Positions 1,229-54,553 of a stretch of DNA of 64,000 nt are shown here, one piece after another. The DNA lies in the sequence record PZ445488.1, one strand, 5' to 3'. Under the pieces are notes generated by a model that did no database searches, was not told the DNA's origin, and saw nothing but the letters and a program-made list of their open reading frames with translations. Each line of letters begins with the position of its first letter. Within the stretch, counting starts at the first letter, position 1. Source of the DNA: a phage. A program made the translations under genes and the position numbers.

Positions 1229-2917
1229 TTATGAAACAGTCATTACCGTAAATCGTCCAACTTTGCTCATCTGAAGATGTTGTCCATAACGTTGAGGGTC
1301 ATGGTCTCGATGAGAGATAATGAACACATTAGTATTTTGTAAACTTCCAAGAATGGTATCTATAGCCTTAACAGCCTCAGAATCGACAGCACCATCAAAA
1401 ACCTCATCAAGAATCAGAGTGTTGATTTTAACGCCAGAGACCTTTTCAGCAATATCTCGCCATGTAAACAACAATGCGATATCGATACGTGCCTTTTCAC
1501 CTTGACTAAATGAAGCATAACTGAACTCTTCACGGCCACGTGATTTTATAGATTCATTGAATTCTTCGTCAATAGAAAACACGTAATCAGCTTCCATGAT
1601 TTTAAGATAGTGGTTAATCTGCTTGTTGAACAGAGGCACATATTTTTTAATGATAGCACCTTTAATACCAGAATCTTTTAACATATCTGTGATAATACCA
1701 CGATGGTATTTTTCAAGAACGATATCCGATTTTGTTTTAATGATTTTATCAAGTTCTTTTTGAAGCAAAGCTATCTCATCGGCGTGGTCGATAAATTCCG
1801 CCGAGGCTTGCTCTATTGCAGCTTTAACTTTCTTAGCTTTATCAATAGTGGCAATCATTGCTTGTTTCTTGGTACGGATATCGGATGCAAGGTCCTGTTT
1901 AGTCTTAACATTAGCTCGATATTCGTCCACTAGGACACTCAGATTATCTCTGTGGCAGGTAAGTTGCTCGAATGAGTGATTACATTCATGAAGCTTATCG
2001 GTAATCTTAGAGACAATAGGGTCACCCTGGTGCAACTGTGATGCGCAAGTAGGACATGTACCGCCATCATGATACATCTTAATAACTTTGTTATATGAGT
2101 CAATTTTAGATTTAATCAAGAATGCTTCTTGTCCGATCTTGTTGAATGCCTCAGTAGGGTCTTCGTCAAGAACGATATTAAGTAGACGCTCGTTAGCTTC
2201 TTCAATTTCTGCTTTTAATGAACGAGCTTCTTTGGCTAGGTCGTCATACATATTCTGTAGACGCGCTACATTATCGCCAGATAATTTCTTTTGACGTTCG
2301 ATATTCTCGTTATAAATCTTAATTTGTTGGATAATACCATCTTTCTTGGCATCGAGAACTTGTCCCTGGGAATTAAGTTCTCGAACTTGAGACTTATTGA
2401 TTTTATCCATTTCAGCTAGTGTTCCAACTTCTAATAAGTCTTCAACAAGCTTTCTGCGAGCAGGGGTGCTAAGAGCCATGAAAGGGGTATACCCTGCCGT
2501 CCCAAGCACAACGATCTGTTTAAAAGACGCGTATGACATTCTGATGCTACGTTCAAATTCTTCTTGGAAGTCACGACTGCTGGCAGATTCATCAAGACGA
2601 ACACCGTCAACGGAGATTTCGAAAATATTAGGCTTTTGGCCTCGTTTAATGAAGTATTTTTTATCATCGAATTCCATCCAAAGCTCAACTAAGAGCTCTT
2701 TCTTGTTCGTGCTATTAATGATTTGTCCTTTCTTAACATCACGAAATGGTTTACCGAAAAGTCCGAAAGTAATGGCTTCTAACATCGTAGATTTACCACC
2801 GCCATTTTTACCAGTGATTAATGTCTTTTGGACTTTATCTAATTGGATATCAATAGGATTCCCACCTACCGACATGATGTTTTGATAACGAACACGATTT
2901 AATTTAAATGATTTCAT
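1229..2917 (-). CDS. 46: recombination endonuclease subunit gp46 (Rad50/SbcC-like ATPase)
   Basis: 562 aa; Walker A GKNGGGKST; long coiled-coil middle; zinc-hook-like CPTC; C-terminal ABC signature region; T4 gp46 size. Confidence 0.92.
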   Translation of the reverse strand: MKSFKLNRVRYQNIMSVGGNPIDIQLDKVQKTLITGKNGGGKSTMLEAITFGLFGKPFRDVKKGQIINSTNKKELLVELWMEFDDKKYFIKRGQKPNIFEISVDGVRLDESASSRDFQEEFERSIRMSYASFKQIVVLGTAGYTPFMALSTPARRKLVEDLLEVGTLAEMDKINKSQVRELNSQGQVLDAKKDGIIQQIKIYNENIERQKKLSGDNVARLQNMYDDLAKEARSLKAEIEEANERLLNIVLDEDPTEAFNKIGQEAFLIKSKIDSYNKVIKMYHDGGTCPTCASQLHQGDPIVSKITDKLHECNHSFEQLTCHRDNLSVLVDEYRANVKTKQDLASDIRTKKQAMIATIDKAKKVKAAIEQASAEFIDHADEIALLQKELDKIIKTKSDIVLEKYHRGIITDMLKDSGIKGAIIKKYVPLFNKQINHYLKIMEADYVFSIDEEFNESIKSRGREEFSYASFSQGEKARIDIALLFTWRDIAEKVSGVKINTLILDEVFDGAVDSEAVKAIDTILGSLQNTNVFIISHRDHDPQRYGQHLQMSKVGRFTVMTVS

Positions 2918-13416: not shown

Positions 13417-13822
13417 TATTTTTCCTTTCATCGATTAAATATGCAATGCCAAATACAATACATGTAATAAAACCTGTGATACAGATAGAAACCAACAACA
13501 CTGTACCAAAGAACCAAATCAAGTTATTTTTAGTAGTTTGTTTGATATCCATCTCACGAATTTCTATAGCTATCGTATCACCTTTATTCAGAAGCGTATA
13601 AAACGACGGTGATACACGCCTGTCAAAAACTCGTCCTTGCTCATCTTTATAGACTGCAATAAATTCTAATTTAGAATATTTTCCTGTAGATTGGCCTGAG
13701 ATTAATTCCACTACCTCCACAGGAATTACTTTAGTTTCCATGTAAGTATTCTGACTGTTCCAAATGAATGGAATAATGGCAAAAACTAAAGCTGCGATAA
13801 AACAACGAAGGCTATATCTCAT
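13409..13822 (-). CDS. hypothetical membrane protein
   Basis: 137 aa with N- and C-terminal hydrophobic segments. Confidence 0.5.
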   Translation of the reverse strand: MRYSLRCFIAALVFAIIPFIWNSQNTYMETKVIPVEVVELISGQSTGKYSKLEFIAVYKDEQGRVFDRRVSPSFYTLLNKGDTIAIEIREMDIKQTTKNNLIWFFGTVLLVSICITGFITCIVFGIAYLIDERKNNV

Positions 13823-14127
13823 TATAATATTCTCTCAAATTTGTGGAAGCATTTACGGCATTTCAATTTCAAGTTATCAGTGGTCCAGTTAACCAGTTGG
13901 ACTTGGATAGTTCCACATTCCGGGCATGGATGTTTTGCTGCTGATTTGGCAGCATTTTCACGTCGTTCAACCATTTTCATTATTTCGTTCCATGCCGGAG
14001 GAACGAACTCTTCTTCACCGTGGATTTTATCTCGCTGAACAAATTCAATCTTTGAACTATCGTCAATAAACTTAACCAAGCAGTGGTTAGTGTTCATATC
14101 AATATCCTCTAAAAGACGTAGTTTCAT
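13822..14127 (-). CDS. hypothetical zinc-ribbon protein
   Basis: 101 aa; CPECG...CRKC four-cysteine cluster at C-terminus. Confidence 0.5.
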   Translation of the reverse strand: MKLRLLEDIDMNTNHCLVKFIDDSSKIEFVQRDKIHGEEEFVPPAWNEIMKMVERRENAAKSAAKHPCPECGTIQVQLVNWTTDNLKLKCRKCFHKFERIL

Positions 14128-18223: not shown

Positions 18224-19225
18224 TTATTTCAGTAAAGTTACTTCAGAGATTTCCTCCCAACCATCTTTATCAGTTGAAATAAAATCTGCTACATAAAGAG
18301 CCGTACGTAATGATACATTGCGAAGACGAGATACGTTAGCCTTCATCCAGGACAATGCTTTGTACGTTTCAGCATCAGTCAAGCCACGTTTCTGCATCAT
18401 GTCAGTAGATAATATTACATCTTCAACTCGAACCATAATCTCTTCATTAGAGTGTACTCCAAGGTCCAAATACACTGAACGAGATACTAAAGCTTGAAGG
18501 TGTGGAGCAAGTTTCGAACCGCGTTCTAACTCTTTATCAATATCAACGTTTGTAATGAAAACGATAGTACCTTCAAACTCAAATTCTTTATCGATACCCT
18601 TATCCTCGAGATAAGATGACGCAGTGCTCCAACAAACTTTGCGTTTATCTCCGGTATCTAATGCTGCTTTAAGAAGGTTCAGGATGTCCATATCTGAGAA
18701 TACGTCAACGTCATCGATTAAGAGAACGCTGTCTTCATCACGGTTGAGCCAAAGTTGTTCGTAAAGGCCAATACCGGAGATTTTACCATTAATGCTTTTG
18801 TATTTGATGAAACCATTATCATTAGCATTATTAAGTGCTTTATCCAGAGAATACGTCTTACCAATACCAGCTGCACCTGAAATAATGAGTGAACGAATTT
18901 TGCCATCAATAATGCCATTCGTCATCATGTTCATTACTTTAAAGCGTTTGTTGATACGAGTTTTCATATCTTCAGTGCTTTCAACAACTGCAACTGGTGA
19001 CGTCTCAACTCCTTCCATTACGATGTCTGATTTGAAGACCCATACTCCACGTTCAGAACCATCAATCATAACGAAAATTTTACCGTCACCTAAGTGGGAA
19101 CATTCAGGATTAAGCTTTGCCGGGAACCATGTCTTTGTGGCAACATAAGAACCAGAGATTTCGTTATTACGATAGATACCTTTTTTGATTTGAACGTTGA
19201 ACATTTTATTCTCCAATTTACTCAT
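18224..19225 (-). CDS. P-loop NTPase (Walker A/B) of unknown function
   Basis: 333 aa; Walker A GAAGIGKT, Walker B-like LLIDDVD. Confidence 0.6.
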   Translation of the reverse strand: MSKLENKMFNVQIKKGIYRNNEISGSYVATKTWFPAKLNPECSHLGDGKIFVMIDGSERGVWVFKSDIVMEGVETSPVAVVESTEDMKTRINKRFKVMNMMTNGIIDGKIRSLIISGAAGIGKTYSLDKALNNANDNGFIKYKSINGKISGIGLYEQLWLNRDEDSVLLIDDVDVFSDMDILNLLKAALDTGDKRKVCWSTASSYLEDKGIDKEFEFEGTIVFITNVDIDKELERGSKLAPHLQALVSRSVYLDLGVHSNEEIMVRVEDVILSTDMMQKRGLTDAETYKALSWMKANVSRLRNVSLRTALYVADFISTDKDGWEEISEVTLLK

Positions 19226-19233
19226 TTCGTTTC

Positions 19234-19271
19234 GATAGGTCTATAGTATCATATCCTAAAAGCATGTACAC
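19234..19271 (-). promoter_or_regulatory. PeSL-like early promoter with stem-loop
   Basis: GATAGGTCTATAGTATCATATCC...GTACA motif upstream of ATPase gene. Confidence 0.45.
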
Positions 19272-19300
19272 TACTTTTTAAAAATATTTTAACCCCCTAA

Positions 19301-19318
19301 GGGGACCCGAAGGTCCCC
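19301..19318 (-). terminator. GGGGACC-UUCG-GGUCCCC hairpin at 3' end of late gene
   Basis: Perfect 7 bp GC stem with UUCG loop 5 nt after stop of 19323..19589; near-identical hairpin at 37209..37224. Confidence 0.45.
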
Positions 19319-19322
19319 ACAT

Positions 19323-19589
19323 TTACTTATCACACTTAGCAACATAATTAGGCATATCACAGAATACAGAGCGAGTAACTACTCGTCCCTTTGACCATGC
19401 TTCAGTTGCTTGTCCGGCCGTGCTATTAATATAGCTTGATTTAATGTTCTCAATACCCTGAGAATGTGATGCATTTACCGAACCGTTAGAAGGCGCAGGA
19501 GCCGGTGGTAACCAGTCTCCTGCGCCCGTGGTAGCACCAACAGAGAATGCCATCATTACTGCGAATAAACCAATTACTAATTTTTTCAT
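19323..19589 (-). CDS. small secreted protein (signal peptide), late-promoter driven
   Basis: 88 aa; N-terminal MKKLVIGLFAVMMAFSVGA signal-like segment; TATAAATA 29 nt upstream. Confidence 0.55.
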   Translation of the reverse strand: MKKLVIGLFAVMMAFSVGATTGAGDWLPPAPAPSNGSVNASHSQGIENIKSSYINSTAGQATEAWSKGRVVTRSVFCDMPNYVAKCDK

Positions 19590-19616
19590 ATTTACCTCAA
19601 GTTAATGGTTATTTAT

Positions 19617-20606
19617 CTATTTATAGTAAGAATTATGATTTTCGAGATAGACTTGCTCAAGGAAATCATCCCAGAAACTCATATCTACTTTTTGTTGCAT
19701 ACCATTCTTGGCAGCTTGTTCTGACGCATGTTCAACTTGGTCAACGATATCTTCTAGGAATTCTTGTACAGTTTTAAACGTATGTTTACCAAGCTTAACA
19801 TCGAGAATAAATGGAGCATCTTGAAGTGGGTAAACCAGGTCGCCGGTTTTGTAAATTTCCAATAATTGAAGTCCACCACGACATGCATGACTCAATGCTT
19901 TCCAGTCAATACCTTCGTTAGCTTCTGCCTTACGAGCACGTTCACCATAGTTCTCTTCCAGTTTAACCAGGATGGCATTGAACTCTTTATTGGTTAACGT
20001 GTCTTGGAATTTACGGTCTAACAGATTATAGAATGTTTGCTTACCTGTTTTCTCGTTTTCGGTTTCAACCCACGAAGCAAATTCACCTACAGGCAGAACA
20101 TTCTTCATATGTGATAAACGAATTACTGCACCATTATCAAAGTATTGTCCCCATTCATTAGAACGTTTAAGGGCTTGACGAAGAACAGCCAGTCGAGAAC
20201 CCTTGACACCGTATTTAGAAGCTTGCTTACGGACATACCCTAAATAAGATTTCATGTTAGTGGTATAGAAACGAGACCTGTTATCTTGAATATACTTCCA
20301 TACATCAGGCAAATCAGATTTAACTACTAGACTTGGTGGAGTGTGAAGCATATCTAATGCGACGGTTTCACCATCCGCAGCTAGTTTAAAGAAATATTTG
20401 AGACTATACAACTCATGGTCTACGTCGTCTTTTGTGTTCTTAGAAGATGTGTTATTCGTGTTCTTGCTCATGTGTTCTTTAACGTTACCGGTCAAGATAT
20501 CACGAGCATGAGGGACATAAATTTCTTTAAAATCGACGTCAGATTCAGGAGTAGACGTTCCATAAAGGTGGCTACCAAAGTAGCTTTTCATAATTGTTTT
20601 CATCAT
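19617..20606 (-). CDS. Pol-beta-superfamily nucleotidyltransferase-domain protein
   Basis: 329 aa; N-terminal YFGSHLYGTSTPESDVDF matches the minimal nucleotidyltransferase signature GS-x(10)-D-x-D. Confidence 0.6.
   Translation of the reverse strand: MMKTIMKSYFGSHLYGTSTPESDVDFKEIYVPHARDILTGNVKEHMSKNTNNTSSKNTKDDVDHELYSLKYFFKLAADGETVALDMLHTPPSLVVKSDLPDVWKYIQDNRSRFYTTNMKSYLGYVRKQASKYGVKGSRLAVLRQALKRSNEWGQYFDNGAVIRLSHMKNVLPVGEFASWVETENEKTGKQTFYNLLDRKFQDTLTNKEFNAILVKLEENYGERARKAEANEGIDWKALSHACRGGLQLLEIYKTGDLVYPLQDAPFILDVKLGKHTFKTVQEFLEDIVDQVEHASEQAAKNGMQQKVDMSFWDDFLEQVYLENHNSYYK
19618..19625 (-). promoter_or_regulatory. T4-type late promoter TATAAATA
   Basis: Exact TATAAATA on minus strand upstream of 19323..19589. 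Confidence 0.5.
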
Positions 20607-28126: not shown

Positions 28127-28456
28127 TTATACTCTAGGCTTTTGAGCTTGTTTGGTATTGGATTCCCATGCGGCTTTGGTAATTTTGTTAGCGGCATAGC
28201 CAAAGGCATTAGATAGAACACCTTTAGAGTTGAATACATCCAATCCAATAAGTACACCTGCTGTGTTAAATTTAGGAGCAAAGTATGCATTAGTTTTAGA
28301 AAGAGCTTTTTTCAATTCAGGGTCTTGAACCAAGCCATCAAAAACGCCTTTACTATTTACTTTATATGTTACTTTGGGATTTTTACCTTCTTCGATAGCA
28401 GCTTTCTGTTCAGCAGATAATGTAACTTCAGTGATAAATTCTTGATACATTTTCAT
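28127..28456 (-). CDS. internal-protein-like protein with capsid-targeting N-terminus
   Basis: 109 aa; N-terminus MKMYQEFITEV resembles T4 internal protein CTS MKTYQEFIAE. Confidence 0.55.
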   Translation of the reverse strand: MKMYQEFITEVTLSAEQKAAIEEGKNPKVTYKVNSKGVFDGLVQDPELKKALSKTNAYFAPKFNTAGVLIGLDVFNSKGVLSNAFGYAANKITKAAWESNTKQAQKPRV

Positions 28457-28462
28457 TTTTCC

Positions 28463-28876
28463 TTAGTAAATTGATTTACCATAGTATTTGTACCAAGTCA
28501 GTCGTTGAGCAATTTTTTCATCTAAGCGTGCTTGACTTATCGCAATGGACGCTTCGGAAGGGACATAATTATTACGAAATTCGGCAGGGATGTCGGAAAT
28601 ATCCTGGACTGTCGTGTCCTTGATTTTGAAACCACGTTTCAAGCATTCAGCGATTAGCTCGATTTGTCGTAAACGTAAAAATTCAAGTTTGTCGTAAAAG
28701 AATGTTACGTGACCTGTGCCTAAGATAAATGTTGGAGAGATTTTAAAATCCTTTACACGTTTACCGTTTTGAACATGTTTACGGACTGCACCAAATACGC
28801 GTGGTAATTCACGATACTCAGCCATAAGATGTTGGTCGGTCAGTTCAGAAACAAGTGTTAAATTGATACGGGTCAT
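28463..28876 (-). CDS. denV: endonuclease V (pyrimidine dimer DNA glycosylase) DenV
   Basis: 137 aa from ATG 28876: [35 protein letters not shown]...; near-identical to recalled T4 endonuclease V. Confidence 0.92.
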
Positions 28877-28894
28877 AATTTCCTCCAAGTAGTT

Positions 28895-28933
28895 GATGAA
28901 TGTATAGTATCAAAGTCCTTGGAGGAAGTAAAC
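28895..28933 (-). promoter_or_regulatory. PeSL-like early promoter with stem-loop upstream of denV
   Basis: 9-nt inverted repeat TCCTCCAAG/CTTGGAGGA flanking TATAGTAT; GTTTAC on minus. Confidence 0.5.
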
Positions 28934-28934
28934 A

Positions 28935-29216
28935 CTATTTTTCTGAAGCGCCTGAAATATATTTTTCAAGACGTTGTTTCATTAACGAGCCGTTCTTAGC
29001 GATTTCTTCCGGTTTATCGCACATACGCAACAGTGCTTCAAGCTTAGCGATATCGCTGGTACGTTCAAATTTGCGAGTATCTATCTTACTGGCAAGTTCA
29101 GAAATACGTGCTAATAGACTTTCGGCTTCAACCAAAGCTGCACCTAGCTTAGTTGCAAATGTGTCAGTAGCTTCGTTAAGAATAGATTCTGATAAAAATT
29201 CACTATATGTTTTCAT
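28935..29216 (-). CDS. internal-protein-like protein with capsid-targeting N-terminus
   Basis: Start at ATG 29216 ([16 protein letters not shown]...), ATGA overlap with lysozyme stop. Confidence 0.5.
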
Positions 29217-36588: not shown

Positions 36589-36620
36589 TAGTAACACCGT
36601 CCATGGTGTTTGTACATCAT
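36589..36620 (-). promoter_or_regulatory. PeSL-like early promoter element
   Basis: GATAGGTCTATAGTAACACC...TGTACA motif on plus. Confidence 0.4.
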
Positions 36621-37120
36621 TTATTTTTAATTTTGCAAATTTTTCCAGCTTCGATACATGCAGCATAGATGATGCTCTGGGCAATTTTATTGCTAGTAGA
36701 CCTTGCAATCACACTAAGAACAATTTCTTTTTCTTCACCACCACAACCCCAGGACCTTTGCTCATGAGTACCTTTAACTACGGCTGAAACTTCAACAGAA
36801 CGTCCGCCATCAGAAGTTTTAACATCTACAACCCAATCGCCATCTTTCTCTTCAACCTGTGGTTTATCCCAAGAAATACTAATATATGATTCACTGTCAA
36901 TAGAAGTCGCCGGGTTTTTCTTTACTGTAAGGCCTTCACTTTCCAGCCATTCAATAGTATTTGCGCATAAATCAGAAGAACACCTCATCGGAAACCGGCA
37001 AGATTTTTCACCTTTAGCTGCAGTGTTATACATCTTTTCTAAAATACGCTTTTGCACGTTTTTAAAAATAGTTTCAGCAGATTCTTCAGATTTTTTATTC
37101 AGTTCAGTGTAAAGACTCAT
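36617..37120 (-). CDS. hypothetical protein
   Basis: Start at ATG 37120 (MSLYTELNKK...) with GAGGAAAAT SD; longer track ORF would overlap upstream gene and hairpin. Confidence 0.5.
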   Translation of the reverse strand: MSLYTELNKKSEESAETIFKNVQKRILEKMYNTAAKGEKSCRFPMRCSSDLCANTIEWLESEGLTVKKNPATSIDSESYISISWDKPQVEEKDGDWVVDVKTSDGGRSVEVSAVVKGTHEQRSWGCGGEEKEIVLSVIARSTSNKIAQSIIYAACIEAGKICKIKNK

Positions 37121-37138
37121 AATATTTTCCTCTGTGGT

Positions 37139-37177
37139 TGATAAATCTATAGTATCACATCTAGGGAAGAAGTAAAC
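37139..37177 (-). promoter_or_regulatory. PeSL-like early promoter
   Basis: GTTTAC...TACTATAGA on minus sense upstream of 36617..37120. Confidence 0.45.
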
Positions 37178-37208
37178 AACTTTTTCAGTAAGTTGTAGAC
37201 CCCCTAAT

Positions 37209-37224
37209 GGGGACCGAAGTCCCC
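37209..37224 (-). terminator. GGGGAC-UUCG-GUCCCC hairpin at 3' end of late gene
   Basis: 6 bp GC stem with UUCG loop, 6 nt after stop of 37230..37856; near-identical to 19301..19318. Confidence 0.45.
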
Positions 37225-37229
37225 ATTCT

Positions 37230-37856
37230 TTACTTACGAGTTTTTGCATACTGAGCAGCGTCAGCAGCCAAACGACCTGCTTGTCGAAGTTTTTCTTTAA
37301 TCTCATCATGAAGTGGTTGAGTATACTTCAAACCTTCGATAGTCAAATAAAGACGATAAAGGTCTGGGGTATCAAGGTTGTTGATATGTTGGCCATTACG
37401 AAGACTATTGAATTCACGAACGAGTGAAGATGTATCAGATTCAATATCACGAACAAGCGAAGATAGTTGTTTATATTTTTTTTCCAGGCTAGAAGTATCA
37501 AACTTAAGAGCAGGAGCTTTAGGAGTTGCTTTTACTTCCGGCTTAGGCTCAGGTTTTGCTACTGCTTTAGGGGTCGCAGGTTTAGGAGTGGTAGGAGCAG
37601 GTTTTACTTTAGGCGAACCAGATTTAGCAGAAACACCACCACTAACAATATCTTTGAATGCTTTAGAAGCTCTGTAATATTCTTTTTGGCTGGAAGTGTC
37701 GATACCGTACATGGCTTGAACGTTTTTGAAAAACTCTGTACTAGTTTTTGTACCAGAAATAGCATCGTAAGCAGCTTGCCATTTCTCTTTTGTCATACGT
37801 ACACCGGCTTCGGTGATTACTTCCGTTTCGGCTAAAAATTCATTAAAAGTATACAT
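37230..37856 (-). CDS. internal-protein-like protein (CTS-like N-terminus, Pro/Lys-rich linker), late-promoter driven
   Basis: 208 aa; N-terminus MYTFNEFLAETEVITEAG; PKPATPKAVAKPEPKPEVKATPKAP low-complexity linker; TATAAATA upstream. Confidence 0.55.
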   Translation of the reverse strand: MYTFNEFLAETEVITEAGVRMTKEKWQAAYDAISGTKTSTEFFKNVQAMYGIDTSSQKEYYRASKAFKDIVSGGVSAKSGSPKVKPAPTTPKPATPKAVAKPEPKPEVKATPKAPALKFDTSSLEKKYKQLSSLVRDIESDTSSLVREFNSLRNGQHINNLDTPDLYRLYLTIEGLKYTQPLHDEIKEKLRQAGRLAADAAQYAKTRK

Positions 37857-37891
37857 TGATGGTCCTTAGAAAGTAGGTTTATTGTTTACTA

Positions 37892-37899
37892 TATTTATA
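37892..37899 (-). promoter_or_regulatory. T4-type late promoter TATAAATA
   Basis: Exact TATAAATA on minus strand ~36 nt upstream of ATG 37856. Confidence 0.5.
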
Positions 37900-37900
37900 C

Positions 37901-37928
37901 AAAAAAGCCCCAACCTTTCGGAAGGGGC
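37901..37928 (-). terminator. rho-independent terminator (GC hairpin + U6) at distal end of tRNA region
   Basis: GCCCC..CCTT-TCGG-AAGG..GGGGC hairpin followed by TTTTTT on minus strand. Confidence 0.55.
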
Positions 37929-37971
37929 TATATACCTTGTCGGGGTTTCCACCTACTAGGTAAGTGTTTGT

Positions 37972-38063
37972 ACGAAACGCCGGGATTCGAACCCGGTTAT
38001 TAAGCAGTTGACGCTACTCAATATTTTTAAAAGGCCATATCTCTACCATATCCGAACGTCCCG
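37972..38063 (-). ncRNA. tRNA-like element: canonical T-arm and acceptor 3' strand but no convincing cloverleaf (tRNA remnant or stable RNA)
   Basis: Minus sense CCGGG-TTCGAAT-CCCGG followed by CGTTTCG-T; possible 5' partner CGGGACG 85 nt upstream gives 92 nt; D and anticodon arms not convincing. Confidence 0.3.
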
Positions 38064-38231
38064 TCAAAAACGCTACTCGGCTTACGGCAAAGATATTTCC
38101 TCGAATCGATAATTCTGTGCGCCGTTTCTGCTGTGATGTAAGGGGATATTAACGAATCATAAAGATTTATTAAGACCAGTCCTTACTCAGGGAACATCAG
38201 TCCGACGACTTGCCGGTAGCGACCCGGCTTC

Positions 38232-38576
38232 TTATTTTGGCATATCATCAATTTGCTCTCGACGCCGATGCCATAGATTAATCGCTTCATAAACACATTC
38301 AGCATTTGGTATATGGCGACAATAGTATAGTGATTCGCGTTTCTGGAACCGATGTTGCAATGGGATTTCGTTTAAAAGGTCTTTACGGTCAAAGTATTCA
38401 AAACTAGTTAACCCGGAACGGTTTTTAAGAAACTTCCAATGGCCAAATTCATTTTGGAAATAAACGTAATCAGCGTGTTGATATAATGAATTAATCAACC
38501 GGTCGGAAATAACTGTATCCTGTTCGTTAAAATAAAACGTTAAATCATGAACTACCAGATAAATATTACCTTTCAT
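38232..38576 (-). CDS. hypothetical protein in tRNA region
   Basis: Start at ATG 38576 (MKGNIYLVVHDL...) with GAGGAAA SD; avoids overlap with tRNA-Arg. Confidence 0.45.
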   Translation of the reverse strand: MKGNIYLVVHDLTFYFNEQDTVISDRLINSLYQHADYVYFQNEFGHWKFLKNRSGLTSFEYFDRKDLLNEIPLQHRFQKRESLYYCRHIPNAECVYEAINLWHRRREQIDDMPK

Positions 38577-40206: not shown

Positions 40207-40213
40207 TTGATTT

Positions 40214-40249
40214 GATAGGACTACTATAACATAGTCCTATCATGTAAAC
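40214..40249 (-). promoter_or_regulatory. PeSL-like early promoter with stem-loop
   Basis: GATAGGACTACTATAACATAGTCCTATC + GTAAAC (plus); same core as 40542..40580. Confidence 0.5.
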
Positions 40250-40251
40250 TA

Positions 40252-40515
40252 TTAAATACCAGCTTCGCGTTTAACATAATCGACGTAAGCTTGGATAGCT
40301 TTCTTGCTGGTAATTTTTACCTGGCCTCGTCCGTTGCCTTCTTTAGAGTTTTTCTTAACAACTACATTACCATCTTTAACACCCCATACATGGACATAAG
40401 TACCGATGTTTCGGTCGTAGAACATTGCATGGTCGTTGTTGTAAGAGAATGATTCGTAGTTCTCTGACAGAGTAGAAGATTGAGATTCAGCGATAAATTC
40501 TTTATAGGTTTTCAT
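40252..40515 (-). CDS. internal-protein-like protein with capsid-targeting N-terminus (ipI position)
   Basis: 87 aa; N-terminus MKTYKEFIAES matches T4 IP CTS. Confidence 0.6.
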   Translation of the reverse strand: MKTYKEFIAESQSSTLSENYESFSYNNDHAMFYDRNIGTYVHVWGVKDGNVVVKKNSKEGNGRGQVKITSKKAIQAYVDYVKREAGI

Positions 40516-40541
40516 TTGTTTTTCCGTTTGGTTGTTGATTT

Positions 40542-40580
40542 GATAGGACTACTATAACATAGTCCTATCAGCATGTAAAC
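40542..40580 (-). promoter_or_regulatory. PeSL-like early promoter with stem-loop
   Basis: GATAGGACTACTATAACATAGTCCTATC...GTAAAC; minus sense GTTTAC-N17-TATAGT. Confidence 0.5.
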
Positions 40581-40583
40581 TAC

Positions 40584-40871
40584 TTACAGAAGAGTTTTTG
40601 CAATAATTTTAAGCTGAGCTACAGAAATATGCTTAGCTTTAAACAGTGCGGTCTCTTCGGCCGGAGAGATAACAACAGTAGCGCCATCTTTCTTAGCAGA
40701 CCATCCGTCCCCTAAGTAAACAGTACCTTTTACTTCTTCACCATCAACCAGACTAATCATCGGTTTACCCTCACGTCCTTTATTTGCTTTAATAACTTCG
40801 GAAGTAAGGGTTGCTTCGGTCAGAGTAGAAACGTTAGCAACAGGTGATATAAATTCTTTATAGGTTTTCAT
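40584..40871 (-). CDS. internal-protein-like protein with capsid-targeting N-terminus
   Basis: 95 aa; N-terminus MKTYKEFISPV. Confidence 0.55.
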   Translation of the reverse strand: MKTYKEFISPVANVSTLTEATLTSEVIKANKGREGKPMISLVDGEEVKGTVYLGDGWSAKKDGATVVISPAEETALFKAKHISVAQLKIIAKTLL

Positions 40872-54520: not shown

Positions 54521-54538
54521 GGGAGACTTCGGTCTCCC
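54521..54538 (+). terminator. GGGAGAC-UUCG-GUCUCCC hairpin + U-rich tail between genes 8 and 9
   Basis: Perfect 7 bp stem, UUCG loop, followed by TTTCGTG then late promoter. Confidence 0.45.
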
Positions 54539-54545
54539 TTTCGTG

Positions 54546-54553
54546 TATAAATA
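54546..54553 (+). promoter_or_regulatory. T4-type late promoter TATAAATA upstream of gene 9
   Basis: Exact TATAAATA 26 nt upstream of gp9 ATG. Confidence 0.55.

Follow-up and report, generated by a model that had tools for sequence, protein, structure and literature searches.

A candidate internal head protein encoded by a putative late-expression cassette of a T4-family phage

A minus-strand open reading frame (ORF) at 37230..37856 (stop codon included) in a 64,000-nt stretch of phage DNA (record PZ445488.1, the whole of which is referred to here as the window) probably encodes an unannotated internal head protein of a T4-family phage, which would be produced from a self-contained late-expression cassette. 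The evidence that carries this reading comprises the match of the N-terminus to the T4 capsid-targeting sequence (CTS), the conservation of that match throughout the protein family, the placement of the late promoter, the ratio of nonsynonymous to synonymous substitution (dN/dS), the cassette behaviour of the locus, and the basic, two-domain character of the product. On the basis of sequence identity the window belongs to a Mosigvirus, an RB69-like phage of the T4 family: the 2.2 kb around the ORF are 100% identical to Escherichia phage CEV1, and 95-97% identical to many Mosigvirus (RB69-like) genomes. The cassette, its neighbours, and a second cassette considered below are all read on the minus strand. 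The interpretation given in the earlier note holds in all those parts that are open to sequence analysis.

The ORF specifies a protein of 208 amino acids (aa), identical to the translation quoted in an earlier note made from the letters of the window, and its ATG is preceded at a distance of 6 nt by the Shine-Dalgarno sequence AAGGA (37863..37867). Comparison with four orthologues yielded dN/dS values of 0.09-0.29, because of which the ORF is taken to be a real coding gene under purifying selection. Searches of Pfam and NCBIfam with the 208-aa protein returned no family, and PHROGs assigned it to PHROG 2280, labelled 'unknown function'. A likeness to TonB or PspC was considered and rejected, the matches obtained from Pfam, NCBIfam and a PDB sequence search being exclusively sub-threshold and low-complexity, and pairing the linker of the protein (described below) with the proline-rich regions of TonB and PspC.

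The first ten codons (37827..37856) specify MYTFNEFLAE, a CTS-like propeptide ending in L-A-E, a motif for the prohead protease gp21. Six of its ten residues are identical to those of MKTYQEFIAE, the first ten residues of IPIII that constitute the T4 CTS (PMC9026906), and the other residues are mostly conservative replacements. In T4, residues 4 and 7 serve mainly for targeting and residues 8 and 10 for processing, with gp21 cutting after L/I-x-E (PMC9026906); each of these functionally mapped positions fits in the present protein, which has F4 (for Y), F7, L8 (for I) and E10. A second predicted gp21 site, I-T-E, is formed by codons 14-16 (37809..37817), such that the mature protein would begin at A17; residues 17-19 of T4 IPI are likewise I-T-E. 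Throughout the 208 residues, [LI]xE was recorded at positions 8-10 and 14-16 and at just one more, 186-188. When the candidate ORFs of the window were scanned, the motif M-x(1-3)-[FY]-x-[ED]-F-[LI]-x-E was found to start only four of 967, and the other three (40252..40515, 28127..28456 and 28935..29216) all lie in the two classical internal-protein loci.

Structure prediction with AlphaFold2 gave a model with a mean pLDDT (predicted local distance difference test) of 74, in which a short N-terminal helix precedes a three-helix N-domain, a disordered linker and a helical C-domain. The N-domain (residues 17-73; 37638..37808), with helices 23-31, 39-50 and 57-72 at pLDDT of about 80-87, is in alignments the most widely shared domain of the family. 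The linker (residues 74-117; 37506..37637) is rich in Pro, Lys and Ala with a pI of 10.3, is predicted to be disordered over residues 74-112 (pLDDT <50), and is the region in which domain swaps occur. The C-domain (residues 118-208; 37233..37505) contains helices 122-153, 164-177 and 180-206, each at pLDDT >90, and the linker plus helical C-terminal domain anticipated in the earlier note are both therefore features of the model. After loss of the first 16 residues, the computed product is a 21.3-kDa protein with a pI of 9.7.

A tblastn search located the protein in 139 phage records, and in all 60 of the 60 records listed it was annotated as 'hypothetical protein' or carried no annotation; a profile search of 1.84 billion representative proteins returned only 13 clusters. 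The hosts concerned are those of coliphages together with phages of Enterobacter, Klebsiella, Serratia, Yersinia and Kosakonia. Orthologous loci were taken from six further genera, seven with Mosigvirus and eight loci in total: Dhakavirus (JS98 orf135), Winklervirus (CBH8), Kanagawavirus (Kosakonia 305 and CIP9), Tegunavirus (fHe-Yen9-01 gp154), Karamvirus (PG7_146) and Marfavirus (Marfa_137). The majority of these loci have the gene just downstream of an annotated tRNA cluster. A CTS-like decapeptide starts all seven orthologues and all eight further cluster representatives, one of them at an internal Met, examples being MKTYNEFLNE, MLKFKEFISE, MLNFNEFITE, MLQYNEFLKE, MLKFKDILTE and MITFNEFLNE, and the second L/I-x-E is present in most family members, with E16 invariant in the alignment. 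No feature of the family persists more than this N-terminus, which is shared by all 13 clusters, drawn from at least seven genera, and is kept even where the N- or the C-domain has been swapped: CIP9 and cluster member P0023 retain the N-domain with a different C-domain after the linker, and P0025, P0027 and fHe-Yen9-01 gp153 retain the C-domain type with another N-domain. The resemblance to a CTS with L-x-E sites that had been claimed for the N-terminus is borne out both by the fit of the T4-mapped residues 4, 7, 8 and 10 and by this family-wide retention.

In RB69, the same position is occupied by a divergent allele, ORF149c, which begins with the near-canonical CTS MKTYAEFLTE. When ORF149c and ORF148c were stitched across a frameshift, the result was collinear with family member P0022 (E = 7e-14). 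The pair (RB69 locus 13429..13991) consequently looks like one CTS gene split by a frameshift, and could be either a pseudogene or an error in the record. As a separate observation, Yersinia phage fHe-Yen9-01 (retrieved locus 1501..2616) carries tandem CTS paralogues, gp154 (MLQYNEFLKE) and gp153 (MLEYSEFLKE), located 9 nt apart.

The T4-type late promoter motif TATAAATA, of the gp55-dependent class, was found as claimed in exact form at 37892..37899, 35 nt before the ATG, and from its position the transcript start is predicted to lie about 6-8 nt downstream. A single TATAAATA proves nothing, because the count in the window (nine) equals that expected from shuffled sequence (8.6); simple enrichment was consequently rejected as support and positional statistics were used instead. 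These indicated that eight of the nine sites lie 15-45 nt upstream of an ORF start, a zone that accounts for 4.7% of positions (binomial P about 2e-10). Furthermore, a check of the orthologues from JS98, CBH8, Kosakonia 305, fHe-Yen9-01, PG7, Marfa and CIP9 established that TATAAATA, GATAAATA or CATAAATA (xATAAATA) stands 27-36 nt before the start in all eight loci of the seven genera, and the RB69 allele has AATAAATA in place of TATAAATA. Of 50 late promoters in T4, 32 have the perfect motif; the others depart from it most often at position -13, where variation is tolerated (PMC2988020). Compared by sequence alone, the present motif shares with the T4 late promoters the exact 8-bp TATAAATA, the lack of a -35 element and a location tens of nt before the start codon, and exhibits no distinguishing difference from them. 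A MotA-dependent (middle) or sigma-70 promoter overlapping TATAAATA was also considered, and was rejected on spacing and a poor -35 match.

Directly upstream of the promoter lies a feature that the earlier note had overlooked, an intrinsic terminator (37901..37929) of the form AGCCCC-uuccgaaagguu-GGGGCU followed by six U, with a minimum free energy (MFE) of -16 kcal/mol and z = -3.4. The terminator follows the homologue of rnaC, is present after rnaC in both T4 and RB69, and on the strength of its T4 homology would close the upstream RNA unit and shield the cassette from early and middle read-through. It abuts the late promoter and leaves 44 nt to the ATG, because of which there is no room for an early promoter; the presence of so strong a terminator directly upstream of the late promoter also indicates that the ORF is transcriptionally isolated.

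At the other end of the gene, a C(UUCG)G hairpin, AAUGGGGAC-UUCG-GUCCCCAUU, with a 9-bp stem and an MFE of -15.5 kcal/mol (37206..37227), begins 2 nt after the TAA stop. Its core GGGGAC-UUCG-GUCCCC (37209..37224) is present as had been described, at a distance from the stop of 5 nt and not 6. With up to three mismatches allowed, the 16-nt core was recorded three times in the window against 0.09 expected. The orthologous loci of JS98, CBH8, Kosakonia 305 and Marfa have equivalent hairpins after the stop codon, and those of PG7 and CIP9 have true terminators, such that a post-stop stem-loop or terminator is found in seven of the eight loci; the exception is fHe-Yen9-01, in which the second CTS gene follows 9 nt downstream. 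The hairpin is predicted to end the late transcript, or to act on it as a barrier or attenuator, and at the same time to form the stem-loop part of a promoter-early stem-loop (PeSL) element.

A PeSL is defined as a stem-loop just upstream of TTTACW-N17-TAYWAT, followed by a Shine-Dalgarno sequence and a start codon (PMC4122927). Downstream of the hairpin, a T4-type early promoter, TTTACT-N17-TACTAT (37149..37177), matches this T-even consensus exactly and would drive the next gene (ATG at 37120), with GAGGA as the intervening Shine-Dalgarno sequence; a generic sigma-70 scan missed the promoter (8/12 matches, below its cut-off). A near-identical copy of the stem-loop plus promoter occurs at 19215..19325 and another in JS98, and the breakpoints of RB69 homology (37893 and 37132) are associated with the element, repetition and breakpoint association both being PeSL attributes. 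The sequence GATACTATAGA, with up to one mismatch, was found eight times in the window, always on the minus strand, against 1.6 expected. On sequence grounds, hairpin and early promoter together constitute a PeSL-type composite element that would also launch the next gene, and the earlier picture of a hairpin-bounded module holds with the qualification that the late promoter motif and hairpin are in place, but the hairpin is at the same time the stem-loop half of its neighbour's PeSL. Of the PeSL elements in the literature, only those of RB49 have been shown to terminate and promote transcription, and they also mediate gene exchange (PMC2839356). A conserved TTAGGGGGT run (37199..37207), recognised by repeat comparison after the hairpin, may be able to base-pair with CCCC in the 3' arm of the stem, and a resultant CCCC-AUUA-GGGG alternative hairpin could compete with that arm of the main stem. 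Runs of the type TT(A/C)GGGGGT were observed after UUCG hairpins at 37199..37214 and 19292..19307 (minus strand), and also downstream of the orthologues in JS98, CBH8 and Marfa.

The limits of homology to other phages coincide with these regulatory elements. Homology to RB69 (92%) ends at 37893 and restarts (97%) at 37132, in the 5' untranslated region of the next gene, so that the segment exchanged corresponds exactly to late promoter plus gene plus hairpin plus early promoter, RB69 having its own allele and e.8 instead. In JS98, 37926..37138 is kept as a single block with 69% identity. Locus comparison found no gene at this position in T4, where the rnaC terminator is followed by approximately 280 nt of non-coding DNA and then e.8, and the ORF fills the corresponding gap. 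So precise a break in RB69 homology at the regulatory elements is, as judged from the alignments, cassette behaviour, for which the best explanation is that the upstream terminator and the downstream PeSL act as conserved joints for cassette exchange between phages. Comparison of gene content at this position, as the earlier note had advised, accordingly distinguishes seven genera that keep the gene, T4 which is without it, and RB69 with its frameshifted allele.

The timing of transcription, cleavage, packaging and ejection proposed here are all modelled on the T4 paradigm. Early and middle transcription from the tRNA/rnaD/rnaC unit would stop at the terminator 37901..37929, the structure of which is evident and the function of which is assigned by homology with T4. 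After the onset of replication, gp55-RNA polymerase would start at TATAAATA (37892..37899) and generate a late mRNA of about 680 nt, ending at or stabilised by the C(UUCG)G hairpin 37206..37227. Given the match of MYTFNEFLAE to the T4 CTS, the 208-aa product would be expected to enter the prohead scaffolding core by means of that decapeptide, whereupon gp21 would cut after L-A-E (residue 10) and/or I-T-E (residue 16), freeing a basic mature protein of about 21 kDa (pI 9.7) that consists of N-domain, Pro/Lys-rich linker and C-domain. More speculatively, the mature protein might stay with the packaged DNA and be ejected into the next host, there to act before phage gene expression; to our knowledge, no phage proteins other than internal proteins are in the cell at the moment when the DNA enters. 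The one internal protein with a known function is T4 IPI*, which disarms a restriction system (GmrSD); IPII and IPIII are basic DNA-associated proteins. Either precedent might apply, the mature protein conceivably neutralising a host defence as IPI* does GmrSD, or alternatively serving as a DNA-associated basic protein like IPII and IPIII.

A number of results weigh against the assignment as an internal head protein. Residue 2 is Y and not K, and residue 4 is F and not Y; moreover, the experiments that defined the CTS were made in T4 and not in a Mosigvirus. An hhalign comparison with T4 IPIII aligned only residues 1-27, with a probability of 19%, and detected no homology in the mature part, as a result of which family homology to IPIII beyond the propeptide is not supported. 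The lack of homology to IPI, IPII or IPIII does not exclude the functional class, because internal proteins are by definition diverse. Fold searches returned only generic helical-bundle matches, and neither they nor the family searches gave any clue to activity. Internal-protein genes have been stated to be confined to two loci and to be absent elsewhere in T-even genomes (PMC2839356), and the present gene lies outside both (ipI next to 57B; ipII/ipIII next to denV and e), the distances in the window being 2.4 kb to the ipI locus at 40252..40871 and 8 kb to the ipII/III locus at 28127..29216; locus is, however, a typical and not a mechanistic feature of the class. In T4, early-type promoters stand directly before the ip genes, and the 100 nt upstream of these genes lack TATAAATA, so that a late-only arrangement is not the T4 norm. 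The hairpin 37206..37227 has the G+C-rich stem of a Rho-independent terminator but is followed by AGGGGGUCUAC in place of the U-tract that such a terminator would have, so that it is not a canonical one, and a terminator scan listed it only on the opposite, and hence wrong, strand. The literature that was searched yielded no virion proteome covering the gene family, nor any relevant mention of RB69 ORF149c or JS98 orf135.

Among the alternatives, the one that survives best accepts CTS-mediated targeting to the prohead and supposes that the protein is a structural or charge-neutralising, basic, DNA-associated head component (like IPII and IPIII) or a degraded core accessory, and no injected effector with a specific host target. 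The pI of 9.7 computed for the mature protein, and a disordered Lys/Pro/Ala-rich segment of the non-specific DNA-binding kind, are what such a component would be expected to show; purifying selection has maintained the family in seven genera, whereas internal proteins are hypervariable and host-specific, and this, together with the lack of a fold pointing to an inhibitor or enzyme, is also in its favour. However, RB69 appears to tolerate a frameshifted allele and T4 is without the gene, from which it follows that the protein is dispensable for head assembly, and two well-folded helical domains that are shuffled independently resemble an interaction module more than a simple polycation. On balance we regard this explanation as unlikely.

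Decidedly improbable, in our estimation, is that the protein is made late but stays in the cytoplasm unpackaged, where it might regulate late functions or the host, its CTS likeness being convergent or vestigial. The persistence of the decapeptide and the second L/I-x-E site across family clusters despite domain replacement, the near-canonical MKTYAEFLTE of the RB69 allele, and the restriction of the motif to four ORFs of the window, the other three of which lie in known internal-protein loci, all speak against this possibility. What it has to recommend it is that a CTS is just ten residues long and differs here from T4 at residues 2 and 4, that internal-protein genes have been reported at two other loci only (PMC2839356), that proteomic support was not found in the literature searched, and that the product of the identically designed 19-kb cassette is a protein with a signal peptide and not a CTS, so that the design itself does not imply packaging.

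That promoter and hairpin are chance or neighbour-owned signals, with the ORF mainly transcribed by read-through and no autonomous cassette in existence, would be compatible with the chance-level count of TATAAATA, with a hairpin that lacks a U-tract and is part of the next gene's early-promoter element, and with the modest z-scores of the hairpins against shuffles (-2.5 and -1.1), but is scarcely credible in the face of the strong terminator immediately upstream, the siting of eight of the nine TATAAATA motifs before ORF starts, the recurrence of late motif and post-stop stem-loop or terminator in orthologous loci of other genera, and the coincidence of recombination breakpoints with promoter and hairpin elements.

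Taken as an internal head protein, the 208-aa product can be set beside T4 IPI, IPII and IPIII as reviewed in PMC9026906, with which it has in common a decapeptide of the MKTYQEFIAE type, comprising an aromatic residue at position 4, F at position 7 and L/I-x-E at 8-10, and, with IPI, a second cleavage motif a few residues past the first. It is likewise a small basic protein, and its gene is carried by the strand of the early genes, within the plastic region that separates 57B from e. By contrast with the T4 proteins, it has no homology to them beyond about 25 N-terminal residues; it is close in size to IPIII (193 aa), roughly twice as large as IPI or IPII, and has two domains joined by a Pro/Lys linker; its gene occupies a third locus after the rnaC terminator and appears to be late-only, as against the early-type promoters of the T4 ip genes; and its family is conserved over seven genera, whereas the T4 internal proteins are hypervariable. 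The T4 internal proteins and their CTS are reportedly the subject of work by Mullaney and Black in 1996.

The hairpin-promoter element can similarly be compared with established PeSLs (Arbiol 2010, PMC2839356; Comeau 2014, PMC4122927), with which it shares the succession of stem-loop, early promoter, Shine-Dalgarno sequence and next-gene start, as well as genomic repetition, coincidence with replacement breakpoints and an exact fit to TTTACW-N17-TAYWAT. It differs in that its stem is G/C-rich with a C(UUCG)G tetraloop, and is nearer to the RB49 type than to the AGNA...TCNT stems of T4 and PST; in addition, the cassette's own promoter is late, so that only the 3' joint is a PeSL and the 5' joint is the rnaC terminator. 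The lambdoid 'morons' offer a further parallel, each being a single accessory gene that brings along a promoter and a 3' structure and is thereby set apart from the genes around it; the cassette gene has the same orientation as its neighbours, and morons arise by illegitimate insertion as against cassette exchange at conserved regulatory joints (a contrast drawn from PMC2839356). The present hairpin also has the tetraloop, the closing C-G pair and the intercistronic location just after a stop codon that characterise the intercistronic C(UUCG)G hairpins of T4. Hairpins of that type in T4 intercistronic regions are said to have been the subject of Tuerk et al. in 1988.

The CTS, the L/I-x-E sites, the late promoter, the C(UUCG)G hairpin and the PeSL are thus known devices of the T4 family; what appears to be new is the unannotated family itself, its two-domain, linker-joined architecture with domain swapping, a breadth of distribution unusual for an internal protein, and the third locus. 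If the internal-protein reading is true, genes of this class also occur outside the two loci known from the literature. Present in phages with therapeutic and biocontrol uses, of which CEV1 is one, the family offers a specific candidate, amenable to testing, for a new injected factor that counters host defence or handles DNA; the cassette, for its part, illustrates cleanly how genes are exchanged in nature at terminator, late-promoter and PeSL joints. A bolder extension, which we consider possible but doubtful, would have the gene represent a third, hitherto unrecognised internal-protein locus of T-even-like phages encoding injected two-domain effectors, each with a conserved N-domain, a recombination-prone Pro/Lys linker and a variable C-domain 'warhead', whereby an immediate-early anti-defence protein could be re-tooled through domain swaps and strictly late synthesis would mean that the protein reaches only the next host.

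The setting of the cassette was described in the earlier note as an otherwise early region, which is a fair description given the tRNA/stable-RNA unit upstream and the early-promoter-driven e.x and frd.3 homologues downstream. The upstream unit ends with homologues of rnaD and rnaC (species 2 and 1; 37930..38237; 88% identity to T4 rnaD/rnaC and 92% to RB69), which were called by neither ARAGORN nor Rfam; at permissive thresholds Rfam returned only two tRNAs, and no family for the hairpins, rnaC or rnaD. Further upstream of these stable RNAs are tRNA-Met, tRNA-Arg and a homologue of RB69 ORF150c. Downstream, and outside the cassette, lies an early gene of 167 aa (36617..37120), the N-terminal half of which is homologous to RB69 ORF146c, at the head of a run of early-promoter-driven homologues of RB69 ORF146c, frd.3, e.6 and e.5.

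The second cassette of the same design (19292..19625) has TATAAATA at 19618..19625, an 88-aa signal-peptide ORF at 19323..19589 and, at 19301..19318, the hairpin GGGGACC-UUCG-GGUCCCC, which has one extra base pair relative to the core at 37209..37224; the near-identical hairpin reported to end a late cassette at 19301..19625 is therefore indeed present. In both cassettes the hairpin is followed by TTAGGGGGT and then by an early-type promoter ending in GATACTATAGA. The 88-aa protein, which begins with a signal peptide (MKKLVIGLFAVMMAFSVGA...) and belongs to PHROG 2243 ('unknown function'), is a candidate late-made periplasmic or envelope protein, with a role for example in superinfection exclusion or lysis control.

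The three further CTS-bearing ORFs of the window, all on the minus strand, merit separate mention. ORF 40252..40515 (87 aa, MKTYKEFIAE) adjoins the ipI homologue at 40584..40871, and lies between the two perfect copies of a 36-nt direct repeat (40207-40242 and 40535-40570). The repeat includes the early-type promoter TTTACA-N17-TATAGT, within which there is a palindrome; it is a textbook case of the promoter/stem-loop repeats of internal-protein loci, and could serve to excise or swap the ORF it surrounds. Elements of internal-protein loci are reportedly treated by Repoila et al. in 1994. The remaining two ORFs, 28127..28456 and 28935..29216, lie on either side of denV, and the 90 nt upstream of each contain no exact TATAAATA; one falls in PHROG 3499 ('internal head protein') and the other in PHROG 3966 ('unknown function'), the latter being probably another unannotated internal protein.

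Finally, a composite of stem-loop and late promoter precedes a plus-strand ORF at 54521..54553: it consists of a GGGAGAC-UUCG-GUCUCCC hairpin and, 7 nt beyond it, TATAAATA, and by analogy can be viewed as a late-mode counterpart of the PeSL.

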